64,000 nucleotides of DNA, from NCBI GenBank assembly GCA_964385615.1, contig CAYLPP010000005.1:26130-90129 (forward strand). Direction: 5' to 3'. The position numbers and the translations under genes were made by a program. Below the pieces are notes generated by a model, which ran no database searches, had not been told where the DNA came from, and worked only from the letters and a program-made list of their open reading frames with translations. Positions within the stretch are counted from its first letter, which is position 1. Each line of letters opens with the position of its first letter. Origin of the DNA: an uncultured bacterium (lineage in GTDB: Bacteria > Omnitrophota > Omnitrophia > Omnitrophales > Aquincolibacteriaceae). Shown here in pieces: positions 8,484-45,962 of the stretch.

Positions 8484-8497
8484 GGTAGATTACCCCC

Positions 8498-9046: not shown

Positions 9047-9048
9047 CG

Positions 9049-9086
9049 AACACTGGAACCGTTGGGGTTCCAGTGTTAATTTTTTC
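9049..9086 (+). terminator. Rho-independent terminator after pyrE
   Basis: Perfect 12-bp stem AACACTGGAACC/GGTTCCAGTGTT (9049-9060 / 9066-9077) with a 5-nt loop, followed by AATTTTTT. Confidence 0.8.
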
Positions 9087-9090
9087 CAAT

Positions 9091-9130
9091 AAAAAACCGG
9101 AAGCCCGTTTTAAGCGGACTTCCGGTTTTT
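9091..9130. terminator. Bidirectional hairpin terminator (serves the minus-strand gene 9151..9645)
   Basis: Stem CCGGAAG/CTTCCGG (9097-9103 / 9119-9125), flanked by an A-run (9091-9096) and a T-run (9126-9130). Confidence 0.6.
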
Positions 9131-9150
9131 CTTTCTGAAGAATTCCTGAA

Positions 9151-9645: not shown

Positions 9646-9804
9646 TTAAAACTCCTTTGTTTTGAACGGGTAAAATATAACAAGCATGATTGCTGTTGGT
9701 TTTTCAGAATAGTACATTTGCCCTGGATGATCAACGTTTTTCTTTAACTCCTTATTATGAAGCAACTTAGGAGCTAATACGAATATAAAAATAAATAGCA
9801 ATAC

Positions 9805-15974: not shown

Positions 15975-17080
15975 TAAAAAAAGAAAAATCTTTCGCCGTT
16001 GTCACGACAACGATCCGTATTCCGGAACTCTTGAGACGTTACGCTCAAGATGCCCGTGATTTTAAACGGAAAATCGAGCAATTTGTGATTGCCGGGGATC
16101 GAAAAACCCCCGATGGTGTCCGTGATTTTTGCGCGCGGCTTTCTGAAGAATTTCAAATTCCTTTTGTTTATCTTTCCGCGCAGGATCAAGATAATTATTT
16201 AAAAACCCGGCCGCGGCTTAAAGAATTTCTTCCCTGGAATTGCATTCAGCGCCGGAATGCCGCCGTGCTTTACGCGTATGACAAAGGTGAAGCCGACATT
16301 ATCGTGACGCTGGATGATGATAATTTTATCTCCCATTCTGATTATTTCGGATGTCACGCCCATATCGGAGACGAGGATGAGGTTGAAGCTGTGAGCTCTT
16401 CGGCTGGATGGTGGAACATTTGTGAAATGCTGGAAGAGAGTAAGGGCCGGTATTTTTATCACAGGGGATACCCGCTTTCAAAACGCTGGCCAAGGGATGA
16501 AAAAATCAAAGTTCAAAAAATCCGGGCTTGCGCGGTGGTTAACGCCGGGCTCTGGCTTGATGATCCGGACGTGGATGCTCTGACCCGCTTGTCTTTTCCC
16601 GTCCGGGCTTCGCGCAGAAGCTCCCTTTTTAGAAACCGCGTAGCCTGCGCTCCGGGAACCTGGTCTCCGTTCAATTCACAAAATACAGCATTGGCCCGCG
16701 AAGTGATTCCGGCCTACTTTTTATTTCCGTATATCGGCCGGTATGATGATATTTGGGCGAGCTATGTCGTTCGGGCGATCGCGGATTATTTGGGAGACGT
16801 AGTGACTTATGGAACTCCGGTGGTCCGTCAAAAGCGTAACCCGCATGATTATTTTAAAGATTTTGACGACGAGCGTTTCGGTTTAACGCACAACGACGTT
16901 TTTTTGAAAGCGCTGACTGCCTGCCGGTTTCAAGGGAAAACGTACCGCGATTGTTTTGCCGAAATTGCCGAGCAGTTTCCCGCCCGGATCCATGAAGCTT
17001 GCAGGTCTTTAAAAAAAGACGCGGCGATTTTCGAGAAAGTCGTTGAAGCCATGAAAATTTGGAAAGAAACGTTTCGATGA
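15971..17080 (+). CDS. Reversibly-glycosylated-polypeptide (RGP/GT75) family protein, UDP-arabinopyranose mutase-like
   Basis: Blocks match plant RGP/UAM: VVTTTIR, TLDDDNF (DDD motif), HRGYPLS, GLWLDDPDVDALTRL, IGRYDDIWASYVVRAIADYLG. ATGA overlap with the SDR gene. The longer track ORF from 15881 runs through the SDR 3' end. Confidence 0.6.
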   Translation: MIKKEKSFAVVTTTIRIPELLRRYAQDARDFKRKIEQFVIAGDRKTPDGVRDFCARLSEEFQIPFVYLSAQDQDNYLKTRPRLKEFLPWNCIQRRNAAVLYAYDKGEADIIVTLDDDNFISHSDYFGCHAHIGDEDEVEAVSSSAGWWNICEMLEESKGRYFYHRGYPLSKRWPRDEKIKVQKIRACAVVNAGLWLDDPDVDALTRLSFPVRASRRSSLFRNRVACAPGTWSPFNSQNTALAREVIPAYFLFPYIGRYDDIWASYVVRAIADYLGDVVTYGTPVVRQKRNPHDYFKDFDDERFGLTHNDVFLKALTACRFQGKTYRDCFAEIAEQFPARIHEACRSLKKDAAIFEKVVEAMKIWKETFR

Positions 17081-22569: not shown

Positions 22570-23714
22570 TGGAAGGCATGAATTATCATCTTGCCGTGAT
22601 CGCTGAAGACGGCCGCTCTTGGGCTGGCGGAGAGGTTTACCTTCGAAATATGATAACGGCGCTGAAGGTTTCAAAAAATGGAAAAAAAGCAAAGATTACG
22701 GTTTTATATTTCCCCGGCCGGACACTCGAACAAATTCAAAGAAGTTACCCTGAGGCGGATGCTTTTATCGAAATGCCCGGCGGGCGGGGAGTTATCAATT
22801 TTTTAAGGAAAATCAAACTGAACTTCTGCAAACTTAAAACCGTGAACGCGGTCATGGGAACTTTCCGGCCGGAATTTTTTAAAAAAATTCCCTTTTTGTG
22901 CTGGATCCCAGATTTACAGTATGTCAGCATGCCTGAGCTTTTTTCGAATTCGGAACGAATCCGTCAGCATGAACTTAATCGGAGCCGGGTTCAAAGCGCC
23001 CATATGATTACGGTGACGAGCCGGACGGTTCTCGATGATATGCGGGGTTGCTTCCCGGAAGGTGTTTTGAAAACGAGACTTTTGGAGCCGGTAAATCTGG
23101 TTCCTGAAACCGTTTATGAGCAGGACCCGGCTGAAATAGCCCAAAAATACGGACTTCCTGAGAAATTTTTTCATATGCCGAACCAGTTTTGGGCGCATAA
23201 AAATCATGAAATGGTTTTGGAAGCCCTTTCTCTTCTTAAAAAAGATCATCCGGATATTTGCGTTGTCTGCACCGGCCGGCCGTACGAATTCCGGGATCCT
23301 GCTTTTTTTAACCGTCTCTTGACTCAGGTTTCGCTTAAGGGTGTAAGATCACAATTTGTGCTTTTGGGTCATATCCCGGGAAAAGATATGTTCGCGCTCA
23401 TGCGCCAGTCTATCGCTCTTCTTCAGCCGTCGCTTTTTGAAGGCTGGAGTAATTCCGTTGAAGAGGCCAGAACTTTAGGGAAAACCGCTATTGTTTCGGA
23501 TTTACCCGTGCATCGGGAGAAAAAAATTCCGGGAGCTGTTTTTTTTGATCCGAAAAACGCAAAACAGCTGGCGGATATTTTGAAAGAGCTTCATTTGAAG
23601 AAAAAATTCGGACCCGACCTAAGTATGGAAAAGCAAGCCCGCGCGGAGCTTCCGGAGCGGATTGAGGTTTTTTCGGAAAAATTTATGGGAATTTTAAATG
23701 AAATCAAAAAATAA
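22566..23714 (+). CDS. Glycosyltransferase family 4 (GT-B)
   Basis: EGWSNSVEEARTLGKTAI C-terminal motif. ATGATG overlap with the preceding gene. Confidence 0.7.
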   Translation: MMEGMNYHLAVIAEDGRSWAGGEVYLRNMITALKVSKNGKKAKITVLYFPGRTLEQIQRSYPEADAFIEMPGGRGVINFLRKIKLNFCKLKTVNAVMGTFRPEFFKKIPFLCWIPDLQYVSMPELFSNSERIRQHELNRSRVQSAHMITVTSRTVLDDMRGCFPEGVLKTRLLEPVNLVPETVYEQDPAEIAQKYGLPEKFFHMPNQFWAHKNHEMVLEALSLLKKDHPDICVVCTGRPYEFRDPAFFNRLLTQVSLKGVRSQFVLLGHIPGKDMFALMRQSIALLQPSLFEGWSNSVEEARTLGKTAIVSDLPVHREKKIPGAVFFDPKNAKQLADILKELHLKKKFGPDLSMEKQARAELPERIEVFSEKFMGILNEIKK

Positions 23715-25014
23715 AGAACGGGTCTACATTCTTGGCGGCGGAGTCACCGGTTTGGCCGCGGGGATTGCTTCCGGCGTCAAAGTTTTTGAAAAAACCGCTT
23801 CGCCGGGCGGAATCTGCTCCTCGTATTACGTAAGAAAAGGTTCAAAGAAAAGGCTTCCCGAACCGCCGAAGAACGCGGAAGCTTACCGGTTTGAAATCGG
23901 CGGAGGGCACTGGATTTTCGGCTGTGACGGTGAAACCGCGAAATTCCTTTCCCGGTTCTGCAGTTTTAAGAAATACAGCCGGCGTTCGTCGGTTTTCTTT
24001 TCCCGAAATAAAATCCGGCTTCCTTACCCGCTCCAGGAACACGCGGAGCTTCTCGGGAAACCGGTTTTCGAAAAGATTCTTCGTGAAAAGAAAAGAGGTT
24101 TTCATCGGAAAATCAGAACCATGGCGGATTGGCTGGAAGCTTCTTTCGGAAAAACTCTTTGTAAGCTTTTCTTTTTCCCTTTTCATGAAAAATACACGGA
24201 TGGGCTTTACCGGAAAATTGCTCCGCAAGACGCTTATAAGTCGCCTCGATTGGGAAGAGCTAATCAGGCAAAGAAAAAACCCGCCGGCTACAACCCCGAT
24301 TATTTTTACCCTTCCAAAGGTTTAGGGTATTTGTGCGCGGGACTGGCTTCCGGATGCCGGATTGGATACGGGAAAAAGGCGGTGCGTATTGATTCTAAGA
24401 AAAGAATCGTTTGGTTCTCAGACGGCACAAAAATTTCTTATGACAGGCTTGTTTCAACCCTGCCGTTGAACCGTATGCTGGAACTGACAGGGCTTAAAAC
24501 CGGAGAAAAACCCGCGCCTTTTACTTCTGTTCTGGTTTTAAATATTGGAGCTGAACGGGGAGTTTCCTGCCCTCCGGATCACTGGCTCTATGTGCCGGAT
24601 ACAAAGTCCGGATTCAGCCGCGTTGGTTTTTATAGTAACGTCGATACCGGGTTTTTACCGCTTTCGGCAAGAGTGAAAAAAAATCGGACCAGCATTTATG
24701 TGGAGAAAGCTTTCGCAAACGGGCGGAAACCTTCAGAAGCGGAAATAAAACGGTATTCAGCTGAAGCCGTGCGCGAACTTCAATCATGGGGCTGGATTGG
24801 TAAAACGGAAGTTGTGGATCCGACATGGATTGACGTGGCTTACACCTGGTCTTATCCGGATTCCGGCTGGACGAAAAAAGCAATTGATGTCTTGGAGCGG
24901 CGGGACATTCATCCGCTTGGCCGTTACGGCCGCTGGCATTTTCAGGGGATCGCGCAATCTATTCGGGACGGTCTTGAAGCTGGGCGTGTGTTGAAGGGAA
25001 GGAAGAATGCCTAA
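23698..25014 (+). CDS. NAD(P)/FAD-dependent oxidoreductase (amine-oxidase/UDP-galactopyranose-mutase-like fold)
   Basis: N-terminal YILGGGVTGLAAG dinucleotide-binding motif and FEKTASPGGICSSY. Function uncertain. Confidence 0.5.
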   Translation: MKSKNKERVYILGGGVTGLAAGIASGVKVFEKTASPGGICSSYYVRKGSKKRLPEPPKNAEAYRFEIGGGHWIFGCDGETAKFLSRFCSFKKYSRRSSVFFSRNKIRLPYPLQEHAELLGKPVFEKILREKKRGFHRKIRTMADWLEASFGKTLCKLFFFPFHEKYTDGLYRKIAPQDAYKSPRLGRANQAKKKPAGYNPDYFYPSKGLGYLCAGLASGCRIGYGKKAVRIDSKKRIVWFSDGTKISYDRLVSTLPLNRMLELTGLKTGEKPAPFTSVLVLNIGAERGVSCPPDHWLYVPDTKSGFSRVGFYSNVDTGFLPLSARVKKNRTSIYVEKAFANGRKPSEAEIKRYSAEAVRELQSWGWIGKTEVVDPTWIDVAYTWSYPDSGWTKKAIDVLERRDIHPLGRYGRWHFQGIAQSIRDGLEAGRVLKGRKNA

Positions 25015-25894
25015 GGTCAGCGTCGGCATTCCTGTTTATAACGCCGAAGCGTATATTGGCGCGGCGGTTCAAAGCGTTCTAAATCAGACGCTGAAAGATT
25101 TTGAATTAATTATCACGGATGATCAGTCGACTGACCGGACACCGGAAATTATTCAAAAATTTTCAGATCCCAGAATCCGCTATTACCGCAACGAGAAGCG
25201 TTTGGGACCTCCGGGTAATTTCAACCGATGCATCAAACTCGCGGACAGTGAATACATTTCTATCTTTCACGCGGACGATCTAATGGAACCTGAAAATCTG
25301 GAGAAGAAAAAAGCGTTTCTGGATTCAAATCCGGAGGCTGGATTTGTTCACAGTAATATTTTCCGGGTCGATTCCGCAGGGAAGGTGCTGGGAGAGCATT
25401 GGCATTGTCCGGCCGAAAAGGACACGTTATTTACCGGGAAAAAAGTTTTTCTGGAATTGTTTGACGGCATTAATTTTATTTGCGCGCCGTCGGTCATGAT
25501 GCGCCGTGAATGCTTCCGGCGTACCGGAAAATTTGAAGAAACCCTGCTTCACGCGTGCGATTGGGAGATGTGGATGAAGACTGCGCTTTTTTTTAAGGTG
25601 GGGTATCTGGCCGAGCCTCTCGTCCGCTACCGTGTTCATGAACAGATGCATTCCGGGACTTACTTCGGTTATTTAAAAGGCGAAGAGGAGTACCTTCAGA
25701 CAAAAGTCCTTATTTTAAAAAAATATGAAAAAGATATTCCGGAGTCTGAAAAACTCAAGAGAAAGATGCTTAAAACAGCAGCGCTTCGAGGACTTGATTT
25801 TTCTCTCGCCCGGTTCTCTGAAAAAAAATACCGGGAAGGTTTTAAGCTTTTAATGTTTTCAATTAAAAAAGCGATGAGATTTATTAATTCGTGA
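25007..25894 (+). CDS. Glycosyltransferase family 2
   Basis: VSVGIPVYNAEAYIGAAVQSVLNQT … IITDDQSTD … HADD. Confidence 0.8.
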   Translation: MPKVSVGIPVYNAEAYIGAAVQSVLNQTLKDFELIITDDQSTDRTPEIIQKFSDPRIRYYRNEKRLGPPGNFNRCIKLADSEYISIFHADDLMEPENLEKKKAFLDSNPEAGFVHSNIFRVDSAGKVLGEHWHCPAEKDTLFTGKKVFLELFDGINFICAPSVMMRRECFRRTGKFEETLLHACDWEMWMKTALFFKVGYLAEPLVRYRVHEQMHSGTYFGYLKGEEEYLQTKVLILKKYEKDIPESEKLKRKMLKTAALRGLDFSLARFSEKKYREGFKLLMFSIKKAMRFINS

Positions 25895-27018
25895 CTCCCA
25901 TGAAAATCGCATTAGTAAATGAAAAATGGACTGCCGGCGCGACCCGGTGCGCCCGGGATATGGAAAAATTTTTAATCCGCGAGGGACACGAGGTGCGTTA
26001 CTACCCTCAAAAAGCACTTGAGAGGGAAGCGGATATCCTGGCGGATCTCAAAAAGTTTTCTCCGGATGTTGTTCACGCGCATTCTTATTACGGGGATTTT
26101 TCTTACGGCTTCATCCGGGAACTGGCCTCTCGTTACCCTGCGGTATTTACGCCTCATGATCCCAGGCCGGCCGGTACGATGGAGACTGTGTGTTGGGACT
26201 GTGCCAGCTATCAAACCTGCTGGAATTGTCCGTTGGTTCCGGGGATCCTTCGCCGTTGGAATCCGCTCACCAACGGCTATTTCCGTTTGAGGCTTAAAAA
26301 GAAACTCACGCATTTCCTCCTGCCTTCCCGGTTGAAGATCGCCGTGCCGAGCGTTTGGATGCGCGAGAGACTTCAGCGGACTGAATTGAGCCGGTTTTCG
26401 ATGACGCATATTCCTTACGGAATCGACACCGAGTTTTTCCGGTTTCATCCCGGATCGAAACAGAGGCTGGGTTTCGGCGAAAATTCAAAAATAGTTTTAT
26501 TTGTATCGCATCCTTCCGGGCCGGGCATCAATAAGCGTAAAGGGCTGGATATTCTTAGTCAGGCATTTGTATCAAAAATTGTTCCGCAATTTCCGGAAGC
26601 TATGCTGGTCATCGCGGGTGAAAGTGCCGTTCCGAATCATCCCGCCATTCGAGGGGTAGGGATGATTTCTCAGGAACAGCTTCCTTTCTATTATTCAGCG
26701 GCGGATGTTTTGGCCTGCCCTTCCCGCGCGGACAATTTGCCTTATACCATTCTGGAGGCTATGGCTTGCGGAATCCCGGTTGTGGGGGCGCGTGTCGGCG
26801 GTATTCCCGAACAGATTGAAGAAGGGGTCACGGGTTTTTTGGTACCGAAGGAAAACCCGGACGCGTTGAGTGAAGCTTTGCTCCGTCTGCTTCGCGATCC
26901 CGAAGCGTCTCTTCGGATGGGCCGTGCCGGCCGGGCGAAGGCCGAAAGGTGTTTTTCCATGAAAGCGTTTACTGAAAAATACGAAACAATTTACCGGGAA
27001 GCGGCGGGGCTCGCGTGA
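25891..27018 (+). CDS. Glycosyltransferase family 4 (GT-B)
   Basis: DNLPYTILEAMACGIPVV C-terminal motif. Start is GTG 25891 or ATG 25900. Confidence 0.75.
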   Translation: MTPMKIALVNEKWTAGATRCARDMEKFLIREGHEVRYYPQKALEREADILADLKKFSPDVVHAHSYYGDFSYGFIRELASRYPAVFTPHDPRPAGTMETVCWDCASYQTCWNCPLVPGILRRWNPLTNGYFRLRLKKKLTHFLLPSRLKIAVPSVWMRERLQRTELSRFSMTHIPYGIDTEFFRFHPGSKQRLGFGENSKIVLFVSHPSGPGINKRKGLDILSQAFVSKIVPQFPEAMLVIAGESAVPNHPAIRGVGMISQEQLPFYYSAADVLACPSRADNLPYTILEAMACGIPVVGARVGGIPEQIEEGVTGFLVPKENPDALSEALLRLLRDPEASLRMGRAGRAKAERCFSMKAFTEKYETIYREAAGLA

Positions 27019-28133
27019 ACTTTCACAAAAAAATCGCTTTTATTTCCACGATGCGGGGATTTCCGTGGGGAGGCAGTGAGGAATTGTGGTCGAGAGCCGC
27101 CTTGATTCTTCAAGAGCGCGGAATTCAAACGGCGGCGTGTTTTTCTTACTCTCCGGAAGCTCCCGGAATCAGGCGCCTGATCGAGAAAGGCGGAAAAGTT
27201 TTTCCAGCGGAACAGACAAGTTTTTTCGGCCGGGCGAAAAGAAAAATCTTAGGAAAGAAGCGGTCTTATCCGATTCTCGATGAGTTTAAGCCGGACCTGG
27301 CCGTAATTTCTCAGGGAACGAATCTCGATGGAATGCTCTGGATGAAATCTTGTGAAGCGCTTCGGATTCCCTTCGTGACAGCCGCGCAGTCGGCATCCGC
27401 TTCCAAAACCTGGCAGACGGATGAAGAGCTTTCTGAAATATCAGCAAGTTACCGGAAAGCCCTGGCGTGTTATTTTGTTTCCCGTGAAAATTTGGAGTGC
27501 GCCCGGATGCAGCTCTCCGCTGAGCTTCCTCAGGCTGAAGTGGTGTGGAATCCTTTTTTAGTCAATTTTAACGAAGTCTTTTCCTGGCCGGATAAAGAAA
27601 ATCCATTCAAACTGGCTTGTGTCGGACGGTTTTTTATCCAGGATAAAGGGCAGGATATTCTTTTAAAGGTGCTCAGCCTTGAAAAATGGCGCAGCCGCCC
27701 GCTTCAAGTCACGCTGTTCGGTTCGGGTCCTCAACGGAGGATGATTGAAAATTATATTCAAAATTTAAAGCTTAAAAACGTGTCGTCGGAAAAAGAAATG
27801 CATCCCGGAAAAATCTGGGAAACACAGCATGCATTGATTTTGCCTTCGCGCTCAGAAGGTTCGCCCTTGGTTCTTATTGAGGCGATGTTAAAAGGGCGTC
27901 CGGCAATTGCTTCGGCTGTCGGCGGAGTTTCTGAAATTTTGGAGGACGGCGTCACGGGTTTTCTGGCGCATGGAGCCGAAGTGAATTGTCTGGATCAGGC
28001 GATGGAGAGAGCCTGGGAAGCGCGTAGCGAATGGCGAAAAATAGGTGAAACCGCGTATCGTAAAATCCGGCAAGCCGTTCCGGAAAGCCCTGAAAGCGTT
28101 TTTGCGGATAAATTGATGAGGCATTTAAAGTGA
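27015..28133 (+). CDS. Glycosyltransferase family 4 (GT-B)
   Basis: EGSPLVLIEAMLKGRPAI motif. GTGA overlap with the preceding gene. Confidence 0.7.
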   Translation: MNFHKKIAFISTMRGFPWGGSEELWSRAALILQERGIQTAACFSYSPEAPGIRRLIEKGGKVFPAEQTSFFGRAKRKILGKKRSYPILDEFKPDLAVISQGTNLDGMLWMKSCEALRIPFVTAAQSASASKTWQTDEELSEISASYRKALACYFVSRENLECARMQLSAELPQAEVVWNPFLVNFNEVFSWPDKENPFKLACVGRFFIQDKGQDILLKVLSLEKWRSRPLQVTLFGSGPQRRMIENYIQNLKLKNVSSEKEMHPGKIWETQHALILPSRSEGSPLVLIEAMLKGRPAIASAVGGVSEILEDGVTGFLAHGAEVNCLDQAMERAWEARSEWRKIGETAYRKIRQAVPESPESVFADKLMRHLK

Positions 28134-29290
28134 GTTCGGAAAAACTTCACATTTGCTATGTGATCGCGCCCGGCGGAGGGCCTGAAACCTACGTGCGGAA
28201 TTTGGCGCCATGGCTGACCGCGCAGGGGCACAGAGTTTCCGTAGTTACTCTTGGCAAAGAACTCCATTTTCCGCCGGAGATTAAAACGGTTTGCGCGCGG
28301 GGTGCCGTGAAACATTATTGGGTTTCGAAATTTTTCGGTAATTTCCGGCAGTGGGCCCTGCGGCTGAGAAGTTTTGAGTGGGAACAGGCGATTAAAGGGT
28401 CTTTGGAAGAGATTGAAAGAACGCGAAAAGTTGATTTGGTGGAGGTGACGGAAGGGATTTCGATTGGTCTTTTAAGAAAGCGCTGGAAGGTTGTGGTCCG
28501 GATTCACGGCTCGGACTGGAGTTTCCGGCATTTCTGCCGTGATGAAGGAAGCCGTAATGATTACGCGCTGATTCAGGCCGAAAAGAAACAGCTCGAGCAA
28601 GCGAACGGCGTTATTTCGATCAGCCGTCATTCCGCCGATCATGTTAGTAAGGCCTGCCATTTTTCAAGGAACCTCATTGAAGTTATTCCGTATCCCGTTG
28701 TACAGCATTTCAAATATAAGAGAGACGGCAATAAGCCCGAAAACCGCATCCTCAGCGTGGGGCGGCTGGAAAAAAGAAAAGGAACCCATACTCTCGTTCA
28801 GGCCATGGAAATTGTTTGGAAAAAATTTCCCGAAATAGAACTTTGTCTTTTTGGGCATGAAGCAGGATTTTCTAAAGAACAACTGCTGAGGATGGTTTCG
28901 GAAAAGAACCGTTCAAAAATCGGTTTTATGGGTTTTGTTTCCCAGGAAACGCTCGCGGATTATTATTCAAAGTCCGTTTTATACGCAGCGCCCACTCAGT
29001 ATGAAACGTTCGGCTACACCTTATTGGAGGCTATGTCCTTCGCGTTGCCTGTTGTCACCACGGCTGTCGGTGCGATTCCGGAGTTGATTGAGGATGGAGT
29101 CAACGGTAAGCTTGTTCCTTACGGCGACTTTAAAAAATTAGCCGGTGTGATCACGGAACTTATAGAAGACCCGCTTCAAAGAGAGAAGATGGGGGAGAAT
29201 GGTTTGCGGAAAGCCGGTGAATATACTTTGGAAAAAATTGCTCCCAGAACACTCGAGTTTTATTTTAAGACGCTGAAGGCGGATTCATGA
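28130..29290 (+). CDS. Glycosyltransferase family 4 (GT-B)
   Basis: ETFGYTLLEAMSFALPVV motif. GTGA overlap with the preceding gene. Confidence 0.75.
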   Translation: MSSEKLHICYVIAPGGGPETYVRNLAPWLTAQGHRVSVVTLGKELHFPPEIKTVCARGAVKHYWVSKFFGNFRQWALRLRSFEWEQAIKGSLEEIERTRKVDLVEVTEGISIGLLRKRWKVVVRIHGSDWSFRHFCRDEGSRNDYALIQAEKKQLEQANGVISISRHSADHVSKACHFSRNLIEVIPYPVVQHFKYKRDGNKPENRILSVGRLEKRKGTHTLVQAMEIVWKKFPEIELCLFGHEAGFSKEQLLRMVSEKNRSKIGFMGFVSQETLADYYSKSVLYAAPTQYETFGYTLLEAMSFALPVVTTAVGAIPELIEDGVNGKLVPYGDFKKLAGVITELIEDPLQREKMGENGLRKAGEYTLEKIAPRTLEFYFKTLKADS

Positions 29291-31032
29291 TTTCAATCGT
29301 CATACGCACTAAAAATGAGGCGAAGGCAATTGAGAAAACACTTCAGCTTTGCCTGTCCCAGAAAGAGGTTCCGGAATTTGAAATAATCGTGATTGATTCC
29401 GGATCGACGGACGGAACTCTGGATATTATCCGCCGTTACCCCGCCGTGAAAATTCTTCATTATGACCAGCCGGTTTTTAGTTTTGGACACGCTTTAAACC
29501 AGGCTTTCAAGGAAGCTAAGGGAGATATTTTGGTTGCGTTGAGCGCGCACGCTTACCCGGCAAGCGAGTATTGGCTGAAAAATCTTATCGAACCCTTTGA
29601 GGATCCACAAGTTGCCGGTGTTTATGGACGGCAGCTGCCCCATAAAGATGCCTGGCCGCCGGTTGAGCGTGAATATTGCGTGGGATATGGAGCGAATCCC
29701 TTAAAGATCATCTCGGCGGAGAAAGTTACTTTTTCAAACGCGAATTCAGCCATTCGAAAATCCTGCTGGCAGGAACGGTTTTTTGCGGAGCATTTAATGC
29801 ATACGGAAGATGTGGAATGGGCTCACGCCATGGTTCAATCCGGATACATTATTCATTATCGTCCTAAAGCTGAGGTTTATCACTCTCACAACGAGTCCTT
29901 GAAGCAGGTTTTTGACCGCTGTTATAAAGGGATGAAGGGATATCGCCTGATTAAAGGTGGAAACCGGCAAAGGGAGCTTGGGGTTTTTTGGATTTTTCCG
30001 AAATGGTACGGGGAAACCAGCCGGGATATTCGGTGGGTTCTAGAAAAAAAGACCGGGTATAAGTGGATTTTTATTGCACCGGTGTACCGGCTTTTTTATG
30101 TACTGGGGCTTATTTCAGCCGATATGCCCGGCGCTTTATGGGTGCCGTTGGAAAAAGTCTGTAATAAAATTTCAAAAAAAATGATAGGGAAAACAGAAAG
30201 CGCGCCGTGCAACGAGGCTTTTCCCGTCTTTCACTTTGAAGCGAACCGTGAATCCGGGTTAAGACTCCGTGAAATCTGGCGGTATCGGGAACTTCTGTTC
30301 TTCCTCATGTGGCGGGATATCAAAGTCCGTTACAAGCAGACCGCTCTCGGTGCCGCATGGGCCATCATTCAGCCGTTTATGACCATGGTTATTTTCAGCA
30401 TTTTCTTCGGTCATTTAGGGAAGATTCCTTCGGATGGAATTCCTTACCCGCTGTTTTCTTTTACGGCACTGGTTCCCTGGACTTTTTTTGCCAACGGCTT
30501 AACGCAATCGTCTAACAGTCTGGTGGGAAGCTCCAATTTGATTACGAAAGTTTATTTCCCGCGGCTGATTATTCCTATTGCGTCGGTTTTGACGGGTGTT
30601 ATTGACTTTCTGCTGGCGTTTCTAGTTCTGATCGGAATGATGCTTTGTTTTGGTCTTCACATTACTTCTTCGGTGATCTGGCTTCCGGTGTTTTTGTTTC
30701 TCGCCCTTGTGACCGCTCTCGGGGCGGGTTTCTGGCTTTCGGCTTTAAACGTGGAATTTAGAGACGTTCGGCATGTCATGCCGTTTTTAATTCAGTTTTG
30801 GATGTTCGCGACACCGATTGCTTACCCAAGCAGTCTTCTTCCAGAGCCCTGGAGAACTTTTTATGGGCTTAATCCGATGACCGGCGTTATCGCGGGATTT
30901 CGCTGGGTCCTTTTAGGCAATGACCCGCCCGGGCCCATCATTTTCGTGTCAGCTTTTACGGCAATTCTTATTTTAATCAGCGGGCTGAGGTATTTTAGGC
31001 GCATGGAAAAGCATTTCGCGGATGTGGTGTGA
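29287..31032 (+). CDS. Fusion protein: N-terminal glycosyltransferase family 2 domain + C-terminal ABC-2 polysaccharide export permease (Wzm)
   Basis: aa 1 to ~290 are GT-A (ISIVIRTKNE … IIVIDSGSTDGT). aa ~320-581 are a Wzm paralog (WRDIKVRYKQTALGAAWAIIQPF, six TM helices). One uninterrupted 581-codon frame. Confidence 0.7.
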   Translation: MISIVIRTKNEAKAIEKTLQLCLSQKEVPEFEIIVIDSGSTDGTLDIIRRYPAVKILHYDQPVFSFGHALNQAFKEAKGDILVALSAHAYPASEYWLKNLIEPFEDPQVAGVYGRQLPHKDAWPPVEREYCVGYGANPLKIISAEKVTFSNANSAIRKSCWQERFFAEHLMHTEDVEWAHAMVQSGYIIHYRPKAEVYHSHNESLKQVFDRCYKGMKGYRLIKGGNRQRELGVFWIFPKWYGETSRDIRWVLEKKTGYKWIFIAPVYRLFYVLGLISADMPGALWVPLEKVCNKISKKMIGKTESAPCNEAFPVFHFEANRESGLRLREIWRYRELLFFLMWRDIKVRYKQTALGAAWAIIQPFMTMVIFSIFFGHLGKIPSDGIPYPLFSFTALVPWTFFANGLTQSSNSLVGSSNLITKVYFPRLIIPIASVLTGVIDFLLAFLVLIGMMLCFGLHITSSVIWLPVFLFLALVTALGAGFWLSALNVEFRDVRHVMPFLIQFWMFATPIAYPSSLLPEPWRTFYGLNPMTGVIAGFRWVLLGNDPPGPIIFVSAFTAILILISGLRYFRRMEKHFADVV

Positions 31033-32243
31033 TGAATCAAACGGCCATTCAGATACATAATCTAAGTAAACGCTACAAAATCGGCCGGGCCGAATCATAT
31101 AAAACGCTTCGCGACGCCATCAGTTTGTGGGGCCCGAAAATTTTTTCTGGAAAAGGAAAATCGGAAGATGCCGAAGAGGGCATGATATGGGCGTTGAAGA
31201 ATATTTCTTTCGAAATTAAAAAAGGGGAAGTGGTTGGAATTATCGGCCGTAATGGTGCGGGGAAAAGCACACTGCTCAAAATTCTTTCGCAAATTACGGA
31301 TCCCTCTGAAGGATCGGTGGATATTTACGGAAAGGTCAGTTCTTTGCTTGAGGTTGGAACCGGATTTCATCCTGAGTTAACCGGCCGGGAGAACGTTTAT
31401 TTGAATGCGGCGATTTTGGGGATGAAAAAGCGCGAGATTCAAAATCGATTTGATGAAATTGTGGCTTTTGCTGAGGTTGAGAAGTTTATGGATACGCCGG
31501 TCAAACATTTCTCCAGCGGGATGTATATGCGCTTGGCTTTTTCGATCGCGGCCCATTTGAGTCCGGATATTATGATTGTGGATGAGGTTTTGGCCGTCGG
31601 CGACGCGGCGTTTCAGAAAAAGTGTCTTGATAAAATGGACGGCGCCGCCAAATCCGGACGGACGATTCTTTTTGTGAACCACAATCTCGGGCAAATCCGC
31701 AGACTTTGCACTTCAGCGCTTTGGCTGGAAAATGGACAATGCAAATCTTTCGGCCCTGTCGGCGAAGTGACGGCCGCTTATCAGGCATCACTGTCTAATG
31801 TCCATTTTGATGTGAATGAATCGATAAAGAATCAAGAAGGTTTTGTATCCTGGAGAATTGAAGGCTTGGACTCAAATGTTATTGAACGGGAAAAGCCGTT
31901 TACGCTGGAATGCCGTCTTCAGCTTAAACGGAAGGTATACAACGGTCATCACGGGCTGATTCTGAAGAATGTCGACGGCCAAAATGTCGCAGGCTGGGCG
32001 TTCAATGGGTTAAAGCTTGAACCCGGACTGCATATCCTTCGATATCAAATTCCATACCTGCCTTTGCGTCCCGGGACCTATTATCTCTACGCTTCGCTTT
32101 GGGATGGGGCTTTAAAAATTGACGCAAGCCATTTAATGCCTGAATTAATTTTTGCCACTCCTGAGTATAGCGAACTTAGCGATGAATGGGCGGGGATTTT
32201 AAATCTTCCCTGCAGCATTGATATTAAAAAGGTTTCTCAGTGA
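31029..32243 (+). CDS. wzt: Polysaccharide ABC exporter ATP-binding protein with a C-terminal carbohydrate-binding domain (Wzt paralog)
   Basis: Walker A GRNGAGKST, highly similar to the 12863 gene through the NBD (LLEVGTGFHP.LTGREN.YLNAAILGM), with a divergent C-terminal domain. GTGATG overlap with the preceding gene. Confidence 0.85.
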   Translation: MMNQTAIQIHNLSKRYKIGRAESYKTLRDAISLWGPKIFSGKGKSEDAEEGMIWALKNISFEIKKGEVVGIIGRNGAGKSTLLKILSQITDPSEGSVDIYGKVSSLLEVGTGFHPELTGRENVYLNAAILGMKKREIQNRFDEIVAFAEVEKFMDTPVKHFSSGMYMRLAFSIAAHLSPDIMIVDEVLAVGDAAFQKKCLDKMDGAAKSGRTILFVNHNLGQIRRLCTSALWLENGQCKSFGPVGEVTAAYQASLSNVHFDVNESIKNQEGFVSWRIEGLDSNVIEREKPFTLECRLQLKRKVYNGHHGLILKNVDGQNVAGWAFNGLKLEPGLHILRYQIPYLPLRPGTYYLYASLWDGALKIDASHLMPELIFATPEYSELSDEWAGILNLPCSIDIKKVSQ

Positions 32244-34183
32244 AAATTACTCTCGTCAGCCGCTGTTATCCGCCCCACTCAGGTTATGGCGGAATCGCGG
32301 TTTACAGCTATTACCTTGCCCGCGCTTTGGCAAAACAGGGACACACGATCAATGTTGTCGCCGCGAGATTTTCCCCGGAAATTCCGGAAGAGACCGTTGA
32401 TGAAGGGGTTCGTGTCATAAGAATCCTGGTTAAGCACAGGTCTTTTTTTCAGCGGGTTCCTTTTTTTGGAAAATTTTACAGGCCGGTACAGCGGTTTTTC
32501 TACAGCTTGAAAGTTTCCTCGATTTTAGCGGGCATAGATAAAAACCAGAAACAGGATATTGTGGAATTCCCTGAAATTGAGGCAGAAGGATTCTGTTATC
32601 TTTTGCGGAAAAAACGGGCCAGGGTTATTGTCCGGTGCCATACTCCCACGTTTGTTCTGAAGAAATATTACAATCAGGAAGAAGTTTTTTACGACACTTT
32701 CTTCATGGGACTGATGGAAACATTCTGTATACGGAAAGCGGATCTTCTCAGCGCGCCGTCTCATGATATGGCGGCGACGATCGCCCTTGAATGCGGGATT
32801 CCGGAAAACCAGATTCGAGTGATTCCTAACGGTTTAGGCCCTGAGTTATTTGTTGATGGCGGAAAAAACCGAGATCCGAAAGAATTGCTTGTCCTTCATG
32901 TCGGGCGTCTGGACAGACTGAAAGGCGTTGAAGTTCTGGCGCAGGCGATTCCTCTTGTTCTTAAAGAAAACCCGGAAACCCGTTTTGTTTTTATCGGTCA
33001 ATCGATTTCTGATGCAAAGGGAGTTAACTGGAAACGGCGTCTGGAAGCCTATTTGGCAGAGCGAAAAAGCATGGATAAGGTCCAGTTTTTGGAGCACCTG
33101 GATCAATCCGCGATGCTTCAGTGGTACACCCGCGCGGATATCGCGGTGGTTCCCTCAATTCTCTACGAGAGTTTTTCCTATACTTGCGCTCAGGCTATGG
33201 CCGCGGGATTGCCTTTGGTCGCGACCCGAATTGGCGGTATTCCTGAAACTCTTGGGGAAGATTCCGCCGGTATTTTAGTCAAGGCGGGAGATGCTCAGGC
33301 TCTGGCGGATGGAATTCTGAAATTCGCGAAAAATCCTGAAATGCGGCTGGAGGCAGGCAGGAAAGCCCGAAAAAGAGCTGAGGAGAAATTCAGTCAGGAA
33401 AAAATCCTTCCCGATTACCTGGCGTATTGTGCCGAAGAAGATTTTCAGAAACATCATACTTCGTCTGTTAGTAAGATATCTGAGAAGGGGAAGAAAGCCG
33501 TTATTCTTGCTTACCATGAAGTCGGAGAAGAAAAGGGAAGCCCATTCCCTTCGATTTACGTGGTTTTGGAAAATTTCAAACGGCAAATTAACGCTTTAAA
33601 ACGGCTTGGATATAAATTTATTTCCATGGACGAGTTTATTTCCGGCCTTCAGGGTAAAACAAAGCTTCCAAAATACTCAGCCGTCATTACTTTTGATGAT
33701 GGGTACGAAGGGGTTTATAAAAACGCGTTTCCGTTTCTGCGCAGTCAAAATTTACCGGCGACTGTTTACGCGATCGCGGATAAGGTTGAGACAAGGGAGA
33801 ACACAAGTTTCCCCTATCTATCCGCCGAACAGCTTAAAGAGATGGCGGGCTGTGGAATTTCGATAGGGTCTCATTCTTTTTCACACGCCGATTTAAAGCA
33901 ATGTTCAGGTGAAATCTTACGCCGCGAGATCTCAGATTCTAAAAAGAAGCTGGAAGAAATCACCGGAACCGAAGTCCGGCATTTCTGCTACCCGTTCGGG
34001 TCTTTTAACCATAAAACAGCTGATCTGGTTGCCGGAGAAGGCTACCAGAGCGCCGTTTCAACCCTGTTCGGAAGCAGGCATCGGGTCAGTGATATTTTTC
34101 ATTTAAAAAGAGTCAGCGTGGGGTACCGCTGGAGCCTTCCTTATTTTCTGTATAAAGTTCATCAGAGCAGGTCAAGGCCATAA
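32240..34183 (+). CDS. Fusion protein: glycosyltransferase family 4 (N-terminal ~400 aa) + polysaccharide deacetylase NodB/CE4 domain (C-terminal)
   Basis: The N-terminal part has MKITLVSRCYPP … ESFSYTCAQAMAAGLPLV. The C-terminal part has CE4 motifs TFDDGY and HSFSH, plus ILAYHEVGEE. Single 647-codon frame. Confidence 0.75.
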   Translation: MKITLVSRCYPPHSGYGGIAVYSYYLARALAKQGHTINVVAARFSPEIPEETVDEGVRVIRILVKHRSFFQRVPFFGKFYRPVQRFFYSLKVSSILAGIDKNQKQDIVEFPEIEAEGFCYLLRKKRARVIVRCHTPTFVLKKYYNQEEVFYDTFFMGLMETFCIRKADLLSAPSHDMAATIALECGIPENQIRVIPNGLGPELFVDGGKNRDPKELLVLHVGRLDRLKGVEVLAQAIPLVLKENPETRFVFIGQSISDAKGVNWKRRLEAYLAERKSMDKVQFLEHLDQSAMLQWYTRADIAVVPSILYESFSYTCAQAMAAGLPLVATRIGGIPETLGEDSAGILVKAGDAQALADGILKFAKNPEMRLEAGRKARKRAEEKFSQEKILPDYLAYCAEEDFQKHHTSSVSKISEKGKKAVILAYHEVGEEKGSPFPSIYVVLENFKRQINALKRLGYKFISMDEFISGLQGKTKLPKYSAVITFDDGYEGVYKNAFPFLRSQNLPATVYAIADKVETRENTSFPYLSAEQLKEMAGCGISIGSHSFSHADLKQCSGEILRREISDSKKKLEEITGTEVRHFCYPFGSFNHKTADLVAGEGYQSAVSTLFGSRHRVSDIFHLKRVSVGYRWSLPYFLYKVHQSRSRP

Positions 34184-34186
34184 CCG

Positions 34187-34948
34187 ATGCCTTTCGGCAG
34201 CGAGAGAAAAGTCCTTTTTAAAAATTCCGCGCAATATTTTTTATGGGCGGTGAGAGGCGATTCTCATTTAGGGCGGTGGGCCAGATATTTCAGATTAAAA
34301 AATATGCTGAGCCGGCTTCATTTTAAACCGGCCCGGATTTTGGATGCCGGCTGCGGTTTGGGTCAGACAGCCTTTTATTTAAGAAGAAAATTTCCGCAGG
34401 CGGAAATCGACGGCATGGATATTTCCCGGCAGGATATCGCTTCTTGCCGGCAAATTAATCAGGAGCTTGGTTCCGGAATCGAGTTTTTGGAAGAAGATCT
34501 CCAGAAAGTCCAATTTCAAAAGCAATACGATTTTATCTGTCTTACAAACGCGCTTTGTTCGATTCCTGATTACAAAGAGGCGCTGGCTCGTCTTTCCGGA
34601 AAACTTTCAAGCGGAGGGTTTTTGCTGATCCAAGACATGAATCTGGATTATATCCGGCGTCATTTTGGGGAAAAGATAGTACCCACGGATGTTGTGCGCA
34701 CGGGATTTTTAGTTGAGGATTTAAAAAAGTGTTTGGAAGCTTCCGGGTTTAAAGTGCTTCACACTGAAAAAAATATGGGGCCGTTAGGCTTAGCGGCAAA
34801 TAGAGCATTTGACGTCGTCCGGGGGAACCCCCTTTTTTTAAACCTGGTTTTTCCGGTTTTAATTTTTTTGTCGTATATAGACGCCCGCGTCAAAGTTAAT
34901 GACGGCCCAGGGCTGTTGATTCTCGCGCAGGCTCGATCTGGTGAATAA
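34187..34948 (+). CDS. Class I SAM-dependent methyltransferase
   Basis: ILDAGCGLGQTAFYL (motif I) and a D/E acidic loop. Confidence 0.7.
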   Translation: MPFGSERKVLFKNSAQYFLWAVRGDSHLGRWARYFRLKNMLSRLHFKPARILDAGCGLGQTAFYLRRKFPQAEIDGMDISRQDIASCRQINQELGSGIEFLEEDLQKVQFQKQYDFICLTNALCSIPDYKEALARLSGKLSSGGFLLIQDMNLDYIRRHFGEKIVPTDVVRTGFLVEDLKKCLEASGFKVLHTEKNMGPLGLAANRAFDVVRGNPLFLNLVFPVLIFLSYIDARVKVNDGPGLLILAQARSGE

Positions 34949-38190: not shown

Positions 38191-39624
38191 ATGAAAAAAA
38201 CAATATCAAAAGCTAAGGAACGCTGGAGAACAATCCTTTCATTTTTGGGAATTCAGGCATTCTTTTCCTTAATGGTGATTAGTTTTTCATGGGGCGGGCA
38301 GAATATTTTTGCTGTCCTGATTGGAATTCCTCCGCTCGTGGCCGCCGCGTTAATGAGCCGGCGGAGCTTGTTTTTCATTTTTTACTTTATGTGCGTGCTT
38401 TTTGTTGTGGGTCAGCGCACTCTCTACTGGGGGCCTTCGCTCCGGTTCGTGCCTGGAGAAATGCTTTTATATCTTCTCGGGTTTCTTTGCCTTGGGTATA
38501 AAACACCGTCTCCGCTTCTACGGCAAGGAGGAATTCCGGCAGCTGTTTGGGTTTTATTTTTAGCGACGTTTTTCGCGGTTTATTCGACGGCCCGGTGGAC
38601 TTATTATCAGCCTGGAGATTTAAACCAAGCTTTCTTTTACGCTAAAATGATGTGGTTGAGCATTCCCGCTTTCTTTGTATGCGGCCGGCTGATTCAGCGC
38701 TTTGAGCATGTCCAGACAACGATTCTTCTAATTTCAGTAGGATGTTTCTTCCTTTCTGGGTTGGCGCTGGCTGAATATTACCATCTGCCCTTTATCCGTT
38801 ATTTCGGAGGTTTCGTGGAAGCGAAAAGCCATGATTCATTCAGCGCCGAAGGCTTTAGGCGCCTTGGCGCCAGTTTCTGGGGTGGTCCTATGCTTGCGGG
38901 TTATTTAACGGTTTCCTTTCCTGTGATCATGTCTCAGTTTTTTAATTCGAAATCCAACGTTCAAAAAATGATTACCCTGGGAACCTTAGTCATGAATTTT
39001 CTAGTGATCTATTATTCAGGACATCGCGGACTTTGGGTGACTTGTCTGATTTCAATCGCTATTTTCTTTTATTTAAAAGGGCTTAAAGGAATTTTTATCC
39101 TGCTTCTTTTAGGATCTCTGGGACTTCATTTTGTGCCGGATATCGCGAAAGAAAGAATACAATCTGTGGTAGGGTCGACGGAGGATTCCAGCGCTAAAAA
39201 ACGCAAAGAGAGAGCTGAATATGCCTGGGAGATGGTTAAGCGCGATCCTATTATCGGAAGCGGATGGGGTTCAAGCGGGCTGGTTCACAGCGATTTTCTG
39301 CAGCTTTGGGCGGATGCCGGCGGCGTCGCTTTTCTTTCACTGCTGTTTATTTTCCTGCAAATTACCAGCCGTCTTTGGATTTGGTTTCGAAAGATCAGAG
39401 ACCGAAGTTATCGGGAATATTACTTCGGGTTATTTGCTTCGGTTTCAGCCGGGTTTATCATTTTATGGCACCAAGCCTGGTTTAACCTCCCGGAACAATT
39501 TTTTCCTTTCTGGATTCTGATGGCGCTTGCTTACCATTATCCCACTATTTGTTTGAATGATACGAGAGTCGCTTTAACAACTTTAATGAATAAAGTTGAA
39601 ATGGAGAAAAAACAAAATGCCTAA
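38191..39624 (+). CDS. Wzy_C-domain membrane protein: O-antigen ligase/polymerase family (alternatively a PglL-type O-oligosaccharyltransferase)
   Basis: About 12 TM helices with a periplasmic loop carrying IIGSGWGSSGLVHSDFLQLWADAGGVAF, a Wzy_C-like motif. Preceded by the only 63-nt gap in this part of the locus. Confidence 0.6.
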   Translation: MKKTISKAKERWRTILSFLGIQAFFSLMVISFSWGGQNIFAVLIGIPPLVAAALMSRRSLFFIFYFMCVLFVVGQRTLYWGPSLRFVPGEMLLYLLGFLCLGYKTPSPLLRQGGIPAAVWVLFLATFFAVYSTARWTYYQPGDLNQAFFYAKMMWLSIPAFFVCGRLIQRFEHVQTTILLISVGCFFLSGLALAEYYHLPFIRYFGGFVEAKSHDSFSAEGFRRLGASFWGGPMLAGYLTVSFPVIMSQFFNSKSNVQKMITLGTLVMNFLVIYYSGHRGLWVTCLISIAIFFYLKGLKGIFILLLLGSLGLHFVPDIAKERIQSVVGSTEDSSAKKRKERAEYAWEMVKRDPIIGSGWGSSGLVHSDFLQLWADAGGVAFLSLLFIFLQITSRLWIWFRKIRDRSYREYYFGLFASVSAGFIILWHQAWFNLPEQFFPFWILMALAYHYPTICLNDTRVALTTLMNKVEMEKKQNA

Positions 39625-45958: not shown

Positions 45959-45962
45959 AGAT

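Follow-up and report, generated by a model that had tools for sequence, protein, structure and literature searches.

A GT2-Wzm reading frame in the polysaccharide locus of an Omnitrophota-like bacterium, probably joined by a single nucleotide

The closest described counterparts of the protein analysed here are the Wzm-Wzt O-antigen ABC transporter of A. aeolicus (6m96, 6oih, 7k2t and 8dku) and the membrane-associated GT2 enzyme PcManGT (6yv7). The N-terminus of Wzm is a cytoplasmic interface helix (PMC9445017). In the window, i.e. the whole stretch of 64,000 nucleotides that we analysed and that is known from sequence alone, a permease half resembles the A. aeolicus Wzm in sequence and fold. 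Unlike that protein, it carries a 298-aa GT2 module on its N-terminus, the end that bears the interface helix in the A. aeolicus Wzm. The neighbouring protein, Wzt2, resembles the A. aeolicus Wzt in that an additional C-terminal domain follows its ATPase part.

The fused reading frame and its two halves

Positions 29287..31032 of the forward strand form, as a preliminary description of this DNA had stated, a single frame of 581 codons, uninterrupted and initiated at an ATG. The gene of a cognate Wzt-type ATPase adjoins the Wzm half, also as claimed, and overlaps the fused frame by 4 bp. The features of this module are the following:

29287..30180, + strand: GT2 (GT-A) glycosyltransferase module, aa 1-298 (Pfam PF00535)
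30181..31032, + strand: Wzm (ABC-2) permease module, aa 299-581 (PF01061)
31029..32243, + strand: Wzt2, ABC ATPase with a divergent C-terminal domain (ABC_tran, E 2.9e-23)

The N-terminal half had been described as a canonical GT-A/GT2 domain. Pfam bears this out, with matches to Glycos_transf_2 (PF00535, aa 3-144, E 3.8e-25, 89.2 bits against a cut-off of 23.3) and Glyco_tranf_2_3 (aa 2-216), and the motif IIVIDSGSTDGT is present. AlphaFold predicted one confident fold for the GT2 module alone (pLDDT 94.4, pTM 0.90), the last helix of which (282-297) terminates at K298. Foldseek retrieved PcManGT as the best structural neighbour (E 5e-15, TMq 0.64), together with TarP, K4CP, WrtF and SpsA. 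The GT-A fold, the failure of which would have counted against the claim of the preliminary description, is thus confirmed by Pfam, AlphaFold and Foldseek. Among PDB sequences, PcManGT is also the best glycosyltransferase match (E 1.6e-8), at an identity of only 18%, and in both proteins C-terminal helices follow a GT-A core. In all homologs, the GT2 module is a whole free-standing enzyme.

In place of the DXD motif that is usual for GT2 enzymes, the subfamily of this GT2 has S86-A87-H88. No canonical DXD was found in the module at the expected site, after strand 81-86, at which S86-A87-H88 was placed on the basis of secondary structure. Among 93 subfamily members, S86 never varies, and conservation of A87 and H88 is 90% or higher. 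The H199-S-H201-N-E203 stretch is likewise conserved in the subfamily, and these sequence features are compatible with a possible His-based metal site. In the ED motif, which corresponds to the acidic catalytic-base region and lies within TEDVEW, E174 is invariant and D175 is at least 90% conserved.

The C-terminal half matches ABC2_membrane (PF01061, aa 336-542, E 1.4e-21, 77.4 bits against a cut-off of 26.9) and is 60-75% identical to stand-alone Wzm proteins of ~320 aa. Its proposed paralogy with the Wzm encoded at 10813 holds (36% identity over 263 aa, E 1e-53). phmmer matched it to the A. aeolicus Wzm (6m96/6oih, E 4e-19) as well as to TarG and the M. abscessus Wzm, and Foldseek gave TM-scores of 0.83-0.87 to the A. 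aeolicus protein (6m96_B/7k2t_B) and 0.82-0.84 to TarG. This is the Wzm fold, in which an N-terminal interface helix accompanies a six-helix membrane bundle. In the AlphaFold model of the fused protein, pLDDT exceeds 90 in both halves, the Wzm part covering aa ~320-575.

The junction and the nearest relatives

The fusion very probably stems from a one-nucleotide event that joined ancestrally separate, overlapping genes of an ordinary ABC-transporter-dependent export module. Three features at the junction bear on this:

30174..30181, + strand: A8 homopolymer at the domain junction, the length of which sets the frame of the halves (direct reading and run scan)
30181..30183, + strand: in-frame ATG (Met299), putative ancestral wzm start, aligned with the Wzm starts of relatives L001 and L003
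30182..30187, + strand: TGA TAG, one base out of frame, putative ancestral double stop of the GT2 gene (sequence reading)

The sequence across the junction is tca aaa aaa ATG ata ggg. Out of frame, it contains TGATAG right after the run, and between Met299 and the conserved Wzm core no further in-frame start codon occurs. When the run was reduced to A7 in a simulation, the GT2 ended as ...CNKISKK at a double stop (298 aa), and a separate 283-aa Wzm (MIGKTES...) began through an ATGA overlap. With A9, the GT2 gained 19 aa before a stop. Of 19 pairs of neighbouring genes inspected in this locus, 13 share a 4-bp overlap of the NTGA type. The junctions of two other fusion ORFs in the window are devoid of start or stop relics.

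The two closest syntenic relatives are L001 (Logan SRR29476932 contig 17589) and L003 (GCA_964553835.1 CAZKMJ010000013.1). Both share the gene order of the window, GT4-GT4-GT2-Wzm-Wzt, but they have two genes where the window, through one extra A, has one frame. Their GT2 (295 and 286 aa) and Wzm (273 and 274 aa) proteins are separate. The corresponding genes are unfused and in different reading frames in L001/L002 and in L003, with an overlap of 14 bp in L001 and of 4 bp (TTGA) in L003. The GT2 C-termini of these orthologs align to aa 294-298 of the window protein, and their Wzm N-termini to aa ~299-310. Identities to the window proteins are 55-57% for GT2 and 65-70% for Wzm, and Wzt2 is 61% identical to the Wzt of L003 and 47% to that of L001. 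P0121 (56% identity) and P0122 (54%), the GT2 homologs closest to the window module, are encoded in syntenic loci of this gene order, where GT2 and Wzm are separate genes that overlap by 14 bp and 4 bp. As the closest PepA (80% identity) likewise lies on the L001 contig, L001 is the nearest of the available relatives. No closer relative or second sequence of the same species was found in the protein or metagenome collections.

In the ancestral state, the GT2 stop and the wzm start would have overlapped as ATGA after a run of seven A's, a number deduced from relatives at only 55-57% (GT2) and 65-70% (Wzm) identity that are not of the same species. An eighth A would bring wzm into the frame of GT2 and abolish the GT2 stop, yielding the 581-codon ORF. 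Since a single extra A joins genes that are split in the closest relatives, the fusion points to either a sequencing error or a mutation of very recent origin rather than to an evolved design. As to which of the two, a homopolymer miscall in the assembly and a very recent slippage mutation are nearly balanced, with a slight lean towards the mutation. The preliminary description had recommended inspection of positions 30150-30250. The ORF is continuous there, and the A8 run with its relics is the precise candidate site of a possible frameshift. The other 23 A/T runs of at least 8 and 90 other runs of at least 7 in the window all lie in intact ORFs, and no split genes were found elsewhere in the window. 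These observations speak against frequent indel errors and thereby, to some extent, against a pure miscall, but not against a one-base origin of the fusion.

Could the fusion be an evolved or a regulated trait?

We searched for the same fusion in other genomes, as the preliminary description had suggested. None was found with the same GT2 subfamily. The ~120 listed homologs of the subfamily include no Wzm fusion, being 280-330 aa long or otherwise lacking PF01061, and homologs of the module, 280-310 aa in length, span 92-97% of aa 1-310. A scan of 1.84 billion representative proteins yielded no other joining of this subfamily to Wzm among the best 150 matches, and a further 80 loci that hold GT2 relatives all lack a Wzm gene directly downstream. 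In its exact 581-aa form, the protein is a singleton, known from a single NCBI contig. One of the scan matches, P0308, is a GT2-GT2 tandem.

GT2-Wzm and GT4-Wzm fusions do occur in other lineages. The conserved GT2-Wzm fusions are those of the two related clusters P0068 and P0069, the latter with six members from JGI, ENA and NCBI, as well as P0029, whose gene is followed by that of a Wzt with a Wzt_C domain, and P0026. A partial ORF follows the gene of P0069. P0246 and P0348 are GT4-Wzm fusions, and fusions of Wzm to a PGT or to an acetyltransferase also occur. We found no paper on the other-lineage GT-Wzm fusions in a literature search. The latter have the same domain order as the window protein, with a cytoplasmic glycosyltransferase at the N-terminus, and their Wzm halves share one highly conserved clade with that of the window protein (60-70% identity). 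However, their glycosyltransferases belong to unrelated subfamilies, and full-length identities of 38-42% come mostly from the Wzm half. Their linkers are ~100 aa long, and, in contrast with the window singleton, the fusions recur across independent assemblies.

The preliminary description had proposed that the fusion hard-wires the last glycosyl transfer, or chain termination, to export. A selected fusion that tethers the GT2 to the exporter in this manner appears quite improbable, even though the frame is unbroken and a fold is predicted for each domain. An N-terminal, cytoplasmic glycosyltransferase on Wzm is topologically reasonable, as that description had expected: the hydrophobic helix 260-277 has positive charges on both sides and the tail of the GT2 is rich in K, so that this part is probably cytoplasmic, and independent, conserved fusions of the types listed above exist elsewhere, some with a downstream Wzt that bears Wzt_C. 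In addition, the location of GT2 immediately 5' of wzm in the two nearest relatives suggests a functional link. Against hard-wiring stand the split genes of these same relatives, the lack of any other fusion found in the GT2 subfamily, and a wzm start codon and out-of-frame double stop kept right after a slippage-prone A8 run. The singleton status of the protein, and the unrelated GT2 subfamilies and long linkers of the truly conserved fusions, also speak against it.

The existence of conserved Wzm fusions elsewhere makes it plausible that a real fusion would be tolerated here. In that case, the GT2 would be cytoplasmic and complete at residue 298, and the N-terminal tail native to Wzm would supply a linker of ~27 residues to a Wzm whose N-terminus lies on the cytoplasmic side, at the interface helix. 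The assembled complex would have the composition (GT2-Wzm)2 Wzt2, and the retained ATG might also yield some free Wzm.

Homopolymer tracts are classic contingency loci when they lie in genes for surface glycans, and long A/T runs cause RNA polymerase to slip. Slippage during transcription or translation, or phase variation at the DNA level, might mix fused GT2-Wzm with separate GT2 and Wzm and thereby tune coupling or surface-glycan expression. The A8 run lies exactly at the domain boundary, A7, A8 and A9 give three different products, and the GT2 gene of L001 also ends in an A7 run. Nevertheless, we regard such a functional slippage site as quite improbable, as A8 is short for efficient slippage, no obvious OFF state exists among the three tract lengths, the boundary in L003 has no A-run, and A/T runs of at least 8 are common in the window. 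Their number (24 observed against ~36 expected in order-1 Markov simulations) is no higher than dinucleotide composition predicts, which indicates that the A8 tract is not special.

The export module in its glycan locus

Judged from the encoded sequences, the one-nucleotide origin leaves an ordinary ABC-transporter-dependent glycan exporter (GT2, Wzm and Wzt) in a ~46-kb polysaccharide locus of an Omnitrophota-like bacterium. The other relevant features of this locus are:

10178..10726, + strand: UpxY-family NusG-like antiterminator (NCBIfam NF033644, 153.9 bits against a cut-off of 100; Pfam NusG)
10813..11682, + strand: Wzm1, stand-alone Wzm
11679..12866, + strand: Acyl_transf_3 gene (Pfam), between wzm and wzt of the first system
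12863..14149, + strand: Wzt1, ABC_tran with a clear Wzt_C (55.8 bits)
25891..29290, + strand: three GT4 glycosyltransferase genes directly upstream of the fused ORF (Pfam)
34187..34948, + strand: SAM-dependent methyltransferase (Pfam Methyltransf_23/31/25/11), candidate chain-terminating or capping enzyme of the second system
38191..39624, + strand: Wzy_C (O-antigen ligase-like) membrane protein (PF04932, 34.3 bits against a cut-off of 31.7)
54390..56882, + strand: Bac_transf phosphoglycosyl transferase, CoA_binding_3 and Polysacc_synt_2 dehydratase fusion (Pfam), with no relic of a start or stop at its junction

Both of the Wzm/Wzt pairs claimed in the preliminary description are present, although it had missed the Acyl_transf_3 gene within the first. 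The nucleotide-binding domains of Wzt1 and Wzt2 are 50-55% identical, not ~65% as had been estimated, and overall identity is 38-41%. The C-terminal domains are divergent, as proposed (23% identity). That of Wzt1 shows weak similarity to 6o14, the carbohydrate-binding domain from A. aeolicus. Against Wzt_C PF14524, Wzt2 reaches 25.1 bits (E 1.9e-5), below the Pfam cut-off of 30.4; its best NCBIfam matches, TagH and galactan Wzt, are all below their cut-offs, and no PDB sequence match was found for its C-terminal domain. This domain may well be carbohydrate-binding. As it matches Wzt_C only below the threshold, export of two different capped polymers by the two systems is no more than plausible.

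The last two of the upstream GT4 genes are syntenic with those that precede GT2 in L001 and L003, and a methyltransferase gene lies directly 3' of wzt in L001. In the second system, the GT4 and GT2 enzymes would assemble an undecaprenyl-linked glycan at the cytoplasmic face. The methyltransferase may cap this glycan, and the cap may be read by the Wzt C-terminal domain. Wzm2Wzt2 would then translocate the glycan, and the Wzy_C ligase-like protein, a candidate periplasmic ligase, would attach it outside. The protein encoded at 54390..56882 is a candidate initiating enzyme of the locus, and the antiterminator gene at 10178..10726 heads its ~46 kb of single-strand glycan genes.

A glycosyltransferase and a permease in one frame

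The single 581-codon frame of the preliminary description, at 29287..31032 on the forward strand, is present in the sequence, and its domains are those that had been proposed. The N-terminal half matches the Pfam families Glycos_transf_2 (residues 3-144, E 3.8e-25) and Glyco_tranf_2_3 (residues 2-216), and the C-terminal half, described as a Wzm permease, matches ABC2_membrane (residues 336-542, E 1.4e-21). In the AlphaFold model of the whole protein, pLDDT exceeds 90 in both halves, and residues 214-310 in the middle are poorly predicted. Foldseek analyses agree with a GT-A fold for the N-terminal half (matches to K4CP, PcManGT, WrtF, TarP and SpsA) and place the C-terminal half with Wzm of A. 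aeolicus (TM-score 0.83-0.87) and also with TarG. As an exact sequence, the 581-residue protein is a singleton, present on one NCBI contig only.

Modelled on its own with an alignment of 93 sequences, the GT2 module (residues 1-298) forms one confident unit (pLDDT 94.4, pTM 0.90), in which a GT-A core is followed by helices 205-223, 233-254, 260-277 and 282-297. The last helix of this GT2-only model stops at the inferred stop codon of a separate GT2 gene. The closest structure is that of the membrane-associated GT2 enzyme PcManGT (6yv7), with a TMq of 0.64. We considered the segment 260-279 as a membrane span, which would invert the fused Wzm. Its hydrophobicity is borderline (Kyte-Doolittle 1.67), R268 is kept in at least 90% of the subfamily, positive charges flank both ends and the segment belongs to a confidently folded domain; this helix is probably interfacial or structural rather than membrane-spanning.

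The motifs RTKNEA, DSGSTD, E174-D175 and HSHNE are conserved in the GT2 subfamily. Its members have S86-A87-H88 at the usual DXD position of GT2 enzymes, also conserve H199-S-H201-N-E203 (alignment A5) and may have a His-based metal site. Many of them are cyanobacterial proteins that JGI labels 'rhamnosyltransferase'.

The junction and the separate genes of relatives

The frame had been taken for an evolved architecture that hard-wires glycosyl transfer to export. The evidence favours instead the joining, by one A, of ancestrally separate, overlapping genes. The frame is intact over 30150-30250, the stretch that had been singled out for inspection, but a run of eight A (A8) lies there together with relics of a start and a stop. 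Bases 30160-30189 are tgt aat aaa att tca aaa aaa ATG ata ggg. The last A of the run (30174-30181) is that of an in-frame ATG (Met299), and TGATAG comes next. The predicted junction-spanning peptide of the fused protein includes ...VCNKISKKMIGKTESAPCNEAF...

When one A was deleted in silico, the GT2 frame ended ...C N K I S K K TGA TAG, giving a protein of 298 residues with a double stop, and ATG ata ggg... started a 283-residue Wzm, the start and stop overlapping as ATGA. One A added in silico extended the GT2 protein by 19 residues, followed by a stop. Of the 19 pairs of neighbouring genes examined, 13 have a 4-bp NTGA overlap, among them all junctions between 25891 and 32243. The shorter run thus restores two genes with an overlap typical of the locus, and the fused ORF is exactly one homopolymer base from a conventional two-gene layout. 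With NTGA overlaps at so many junctions, one base inserted directly upstream of a start codon would join neighbouring genes at many sites. Whether a miscall or a mutation, the joining is a recent, single-base event, since neither the start codon nor the double stop beyond the reading frame has decayed.

With the GT2 half as the sole query, approximately 120 homologs were listed, nearly all of 280-330 residues and covering 92-97% of residues 1-310; none of those listed has an ABC2 domain. The best two, P0121 (56% identity) and P0122 (54%), belong to syntenic loci with the order GT4, GT4, GT2, Wzm, Wzt. The closest syntenic relatives are L001 (Logan SRR29476932 contig 17589) and L003 (GCA_964553835.1, CAZKMJ010000013.1), whose genes are arranged as follows.

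GT2 and Wzm genes of the closest syntenic relatives
L001: GT2 8001-8888, 295 aa; Wzm 8875-9696, 273 aa; overlap 14 bp
L003: GT2 8001-8861, 286 aa; Wzm 8858-9682, 274 aa; overlap 4 bp (TTGA)

In both loci, tblastn places the GT2 and Wzm halves in different frames. In the alignment, the C-termini of the orthologous GT2 proteins fall at window residues 294-298, and the N-termini of the orthologous Wzm proteins at approximately 299-310. The GT2 protein of L001 also terminates in ...KK before its stop codon, on a run of seven A. L001 is the nearest available relative, because its contig holds the closest homolog of the PepA protein of the window (80% identity); the named PepA matches are from Candidatus Omnitrophota MAGs, and the organism is accordingly Omnitrophota-like. 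Two more distant subfamily members are stand-alone proteins, one (P0123) encoded three genes downstream of a Wzm-Wzt pair and the other (P0124) with no exporter nearby.

The genome-contig search with the GT2 alignment (one pattern of which, VVDSGS, differs from the VIDSGS of the window) gave at least 80 loci, and a Wzm fused to or directly downstream of GT2 occurs in 0 of the 80 other genome loci listed with GT2 relatives. The same fusion was also sought elsewhere by running HMMER with the full fusion against 1.84 billion representative proteins; the best 150 matches include no second GT2-subfamily-Wzm protein. P0308, with two matched stretches, appeared to be a candidate but is a GT2-GT2 tandem.

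An assembly miscall is nearly as probable an origin of the extra A as a real, recent slippage mutation. No same-species sequence was found, the best GT2 matches being 56% identical in the protein collection and 38% identical in metagenome contigs, and the junction DNA pattern with a variable run length had no match in metagenome contigs. The window contains 91 A/T runs of at least 7 bases and 24 of at least 8. The other 23 runs of at least 8 and 90 other runs of at least 7 lie in intact ORFs, which bounds the per-run error rate loosely, at roughly 3-12%. No split genes were found in the window. The overlapping pairs 1144/1677, 40777/41162, 44951/45891, 52508/54390 and 59647/60113 were considered as frameshift pairs; their members belong to different families and have complete domains, and the five pairs reflect over-extended starts, not split genes. 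An enrichment of A/T runs over base composition was also considered, and Markov simulations of order 1 to 5 gave similar or higher counts. The abundance of these runs follows from dinucleotide composition, with no separate enrichment, and the A8 run does not stand out in this genome.

At an ATGA stop/start overlap, one homopolymer base can be enough to create a striking domain fusion, and inferring an evolved architecture from such a fusion requires both conservation and support from the reads. Were the extra A real, this gene would be a natural example of overlapping genes fusing in one step, and would offer an inexpensive way to ask whether a glycosyltransferase works when tethered to an O-antigen-type exporter.

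A possibly tethered enzyme and Wzm fusions in other lineages

That A8 is the true genomic state and that the 581-residue GT2-Wzm protein is made and works, i.e. that this is a freshly born fusion at its origin, is a tentative reading that we hold to be less likely than not. If it were true, a normally free glycosyltransferase would tolerate covalent tethering where the export channel opens to the cytoplasm, with two tethered GT2 copies per Wzm2Wzt2. The N-terminus of Wzm is a cytoplasmic interface helix (PMC9445017). The GT2 half is expected to be cytoplasmic, the native Wzm tail (residues 299-325, about 27 residues) would serve as a linker, and the fused protein would probably assemble as (GT2-Wzm)2 Wzt2. 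N-terminal cargo on Wzm is probably tolerated, since the same Wzm clade bears conserved fusions at its N-terminus in other lineages. Most gene starts in the locus are without a clear Shine-Dalgarno sequence, and Met299 might therefore still serve as the start of some free Wzm.

That Wzm clade, outside the window and 60-75% identical across phyla (L084 and L085 are among its loci), repeatedly bears differing N-terminal fusions. The proteins of the clade that we considered are P0078, P0118 and those listed below.

N-terminal fusions in the Wzm clade
GT2-Wzm, other GT2 subfamilies: P0069 cluster (6 members, from JGI, ENA and NCBI), P0068, P0029, P0026
GT4-Wzm: P0246, P0348
Bac_transf phosphoglycosyl transferase-Wzm: P0040
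Hexapeptide acetyltransferase-Wzm: P0258
DegT aminotransferase-Wzm: P0056

Further N-terminal fusions in this clade involve a truncated epimerase and VanZ. The gene after P0029 codes for a Wzt with Wzt_C, and that after P0069 is a partial, unannotated ORF. Stand-alone members of the clade have a variable, low-complexity N-terminal tail of ~60 residues. The GT2 fusion of the P0069 cluster and the GT4 fusions, at least, are each found in more than one independent assembly; the literature searched yielded no description of native GT-Wzm fusions. Their recurrence is a modest lead that hints at physical coupling of assembly and export. Together with a working fusion in the window, these fusions in other phyla would argue that, in the ABC-transporter-dependent pathway, late cytoplasmic assembly enzymes normally work while docked at the N-terminus of Wzm.

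The two exporters and their glycan locus

The locus holds two Wzm/Wzt pairs, as had been described. The first, at 10813..14149, comprises Wzm1, an Acyl_transf_3 protein and Wzt1 with a clear Wzt_C domain. Wzt2 (31029..32243), an ABC ATPase, overlaps the fused ORF by 4 bp, and its Wzt_C match is weak (25.1 bits, under the 30.4 cut-off). The Wzm copies are paralogous (36% identity), and the two Wzt proteins, also paralogs, share 38-41% identity overall. Their nucleotide-binding domains, estimated earlier at about 65% identity, are 50-55% identical, and the C-terminal domains are indeed divergent (23%). Two exporters with divergent C-terminal domains would fit the export of two different glycans.

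The module is a known kind of exporter module, and the standard ABC-transporter-dependent pathway is its likely mechanism. The glycan would be assembled in the cytoplasm on undecaprenyl phosphate, possibly capped by methylation, recognized by the Wzt C-terminal domain, exported by Wzm2Wzt2 and ligated outside. The module lies within a ~46-kb single-strand locus with many GT4 and GT2 genes, methyltransferases and sugar-nucleotide enzymes, and with the following features.

Further features of the locus
10178..10726, forward strand: UpxY-family NusG-like antiterminator at the head of the locus (153.9 bits, above the NCBIfam cut-off)
11679..12866, forward strand: Acyl_transf_3 membrane acyltransferase, its gene overlapping both wzm1 before it and wzt1 after it by 4 bp
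15881..17080, forward strand: Reversibly Glycosylated Polypeptide family PF03214 (E 3.7e-12), STELLO family weakly
32240..34183, forward strand: GT4-deacetylase fusion, 647 aa; complete GT4 at residues 1-390, polysaccharide deacetylase (NodB) at residues 475-603
38191..39624, forward strand: Wzy_C, O-antigen ligase-like
45891..47681, forward strand: PMT_2, GT-C, ArnT/PMT-like
54390..56882, forward strand: phosphoglycosyl-transferase-dehydratase fusion, 830 aa; Bac_transf at residues 20-206, CoA_binding_3, 4,6-dehydratase-type Polysacc_synt_2 at residues 502-782

No start/stop relic was seen at the junctions of the 32240..34183 and 54390..56882 fusions, and the GT4-NodB fusion is absent from the syntenic L001 and L003. 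At E ≤ 1e-4, Pfam matched none of three sizeable forward-strand ORFs within the glycan locus, 23698..25014 (438 aa), 48494..49591 (365 aa) and 52508..54448 (646 aa). The Wzy_C and PMT_2 proteins, which share the locus with both exporters, point to ligation in the periplasm and to steps of lipid-linked sugar transfer, and the placement of the Acyl_transf_3 gene suggests O-acylation tied to the first exporter. The UpxY family takes its name from the UpxY proteins of Bacteroides. The PF03214 and STELLO families are best known from plants and are unusual in a bacterial glycan locus.
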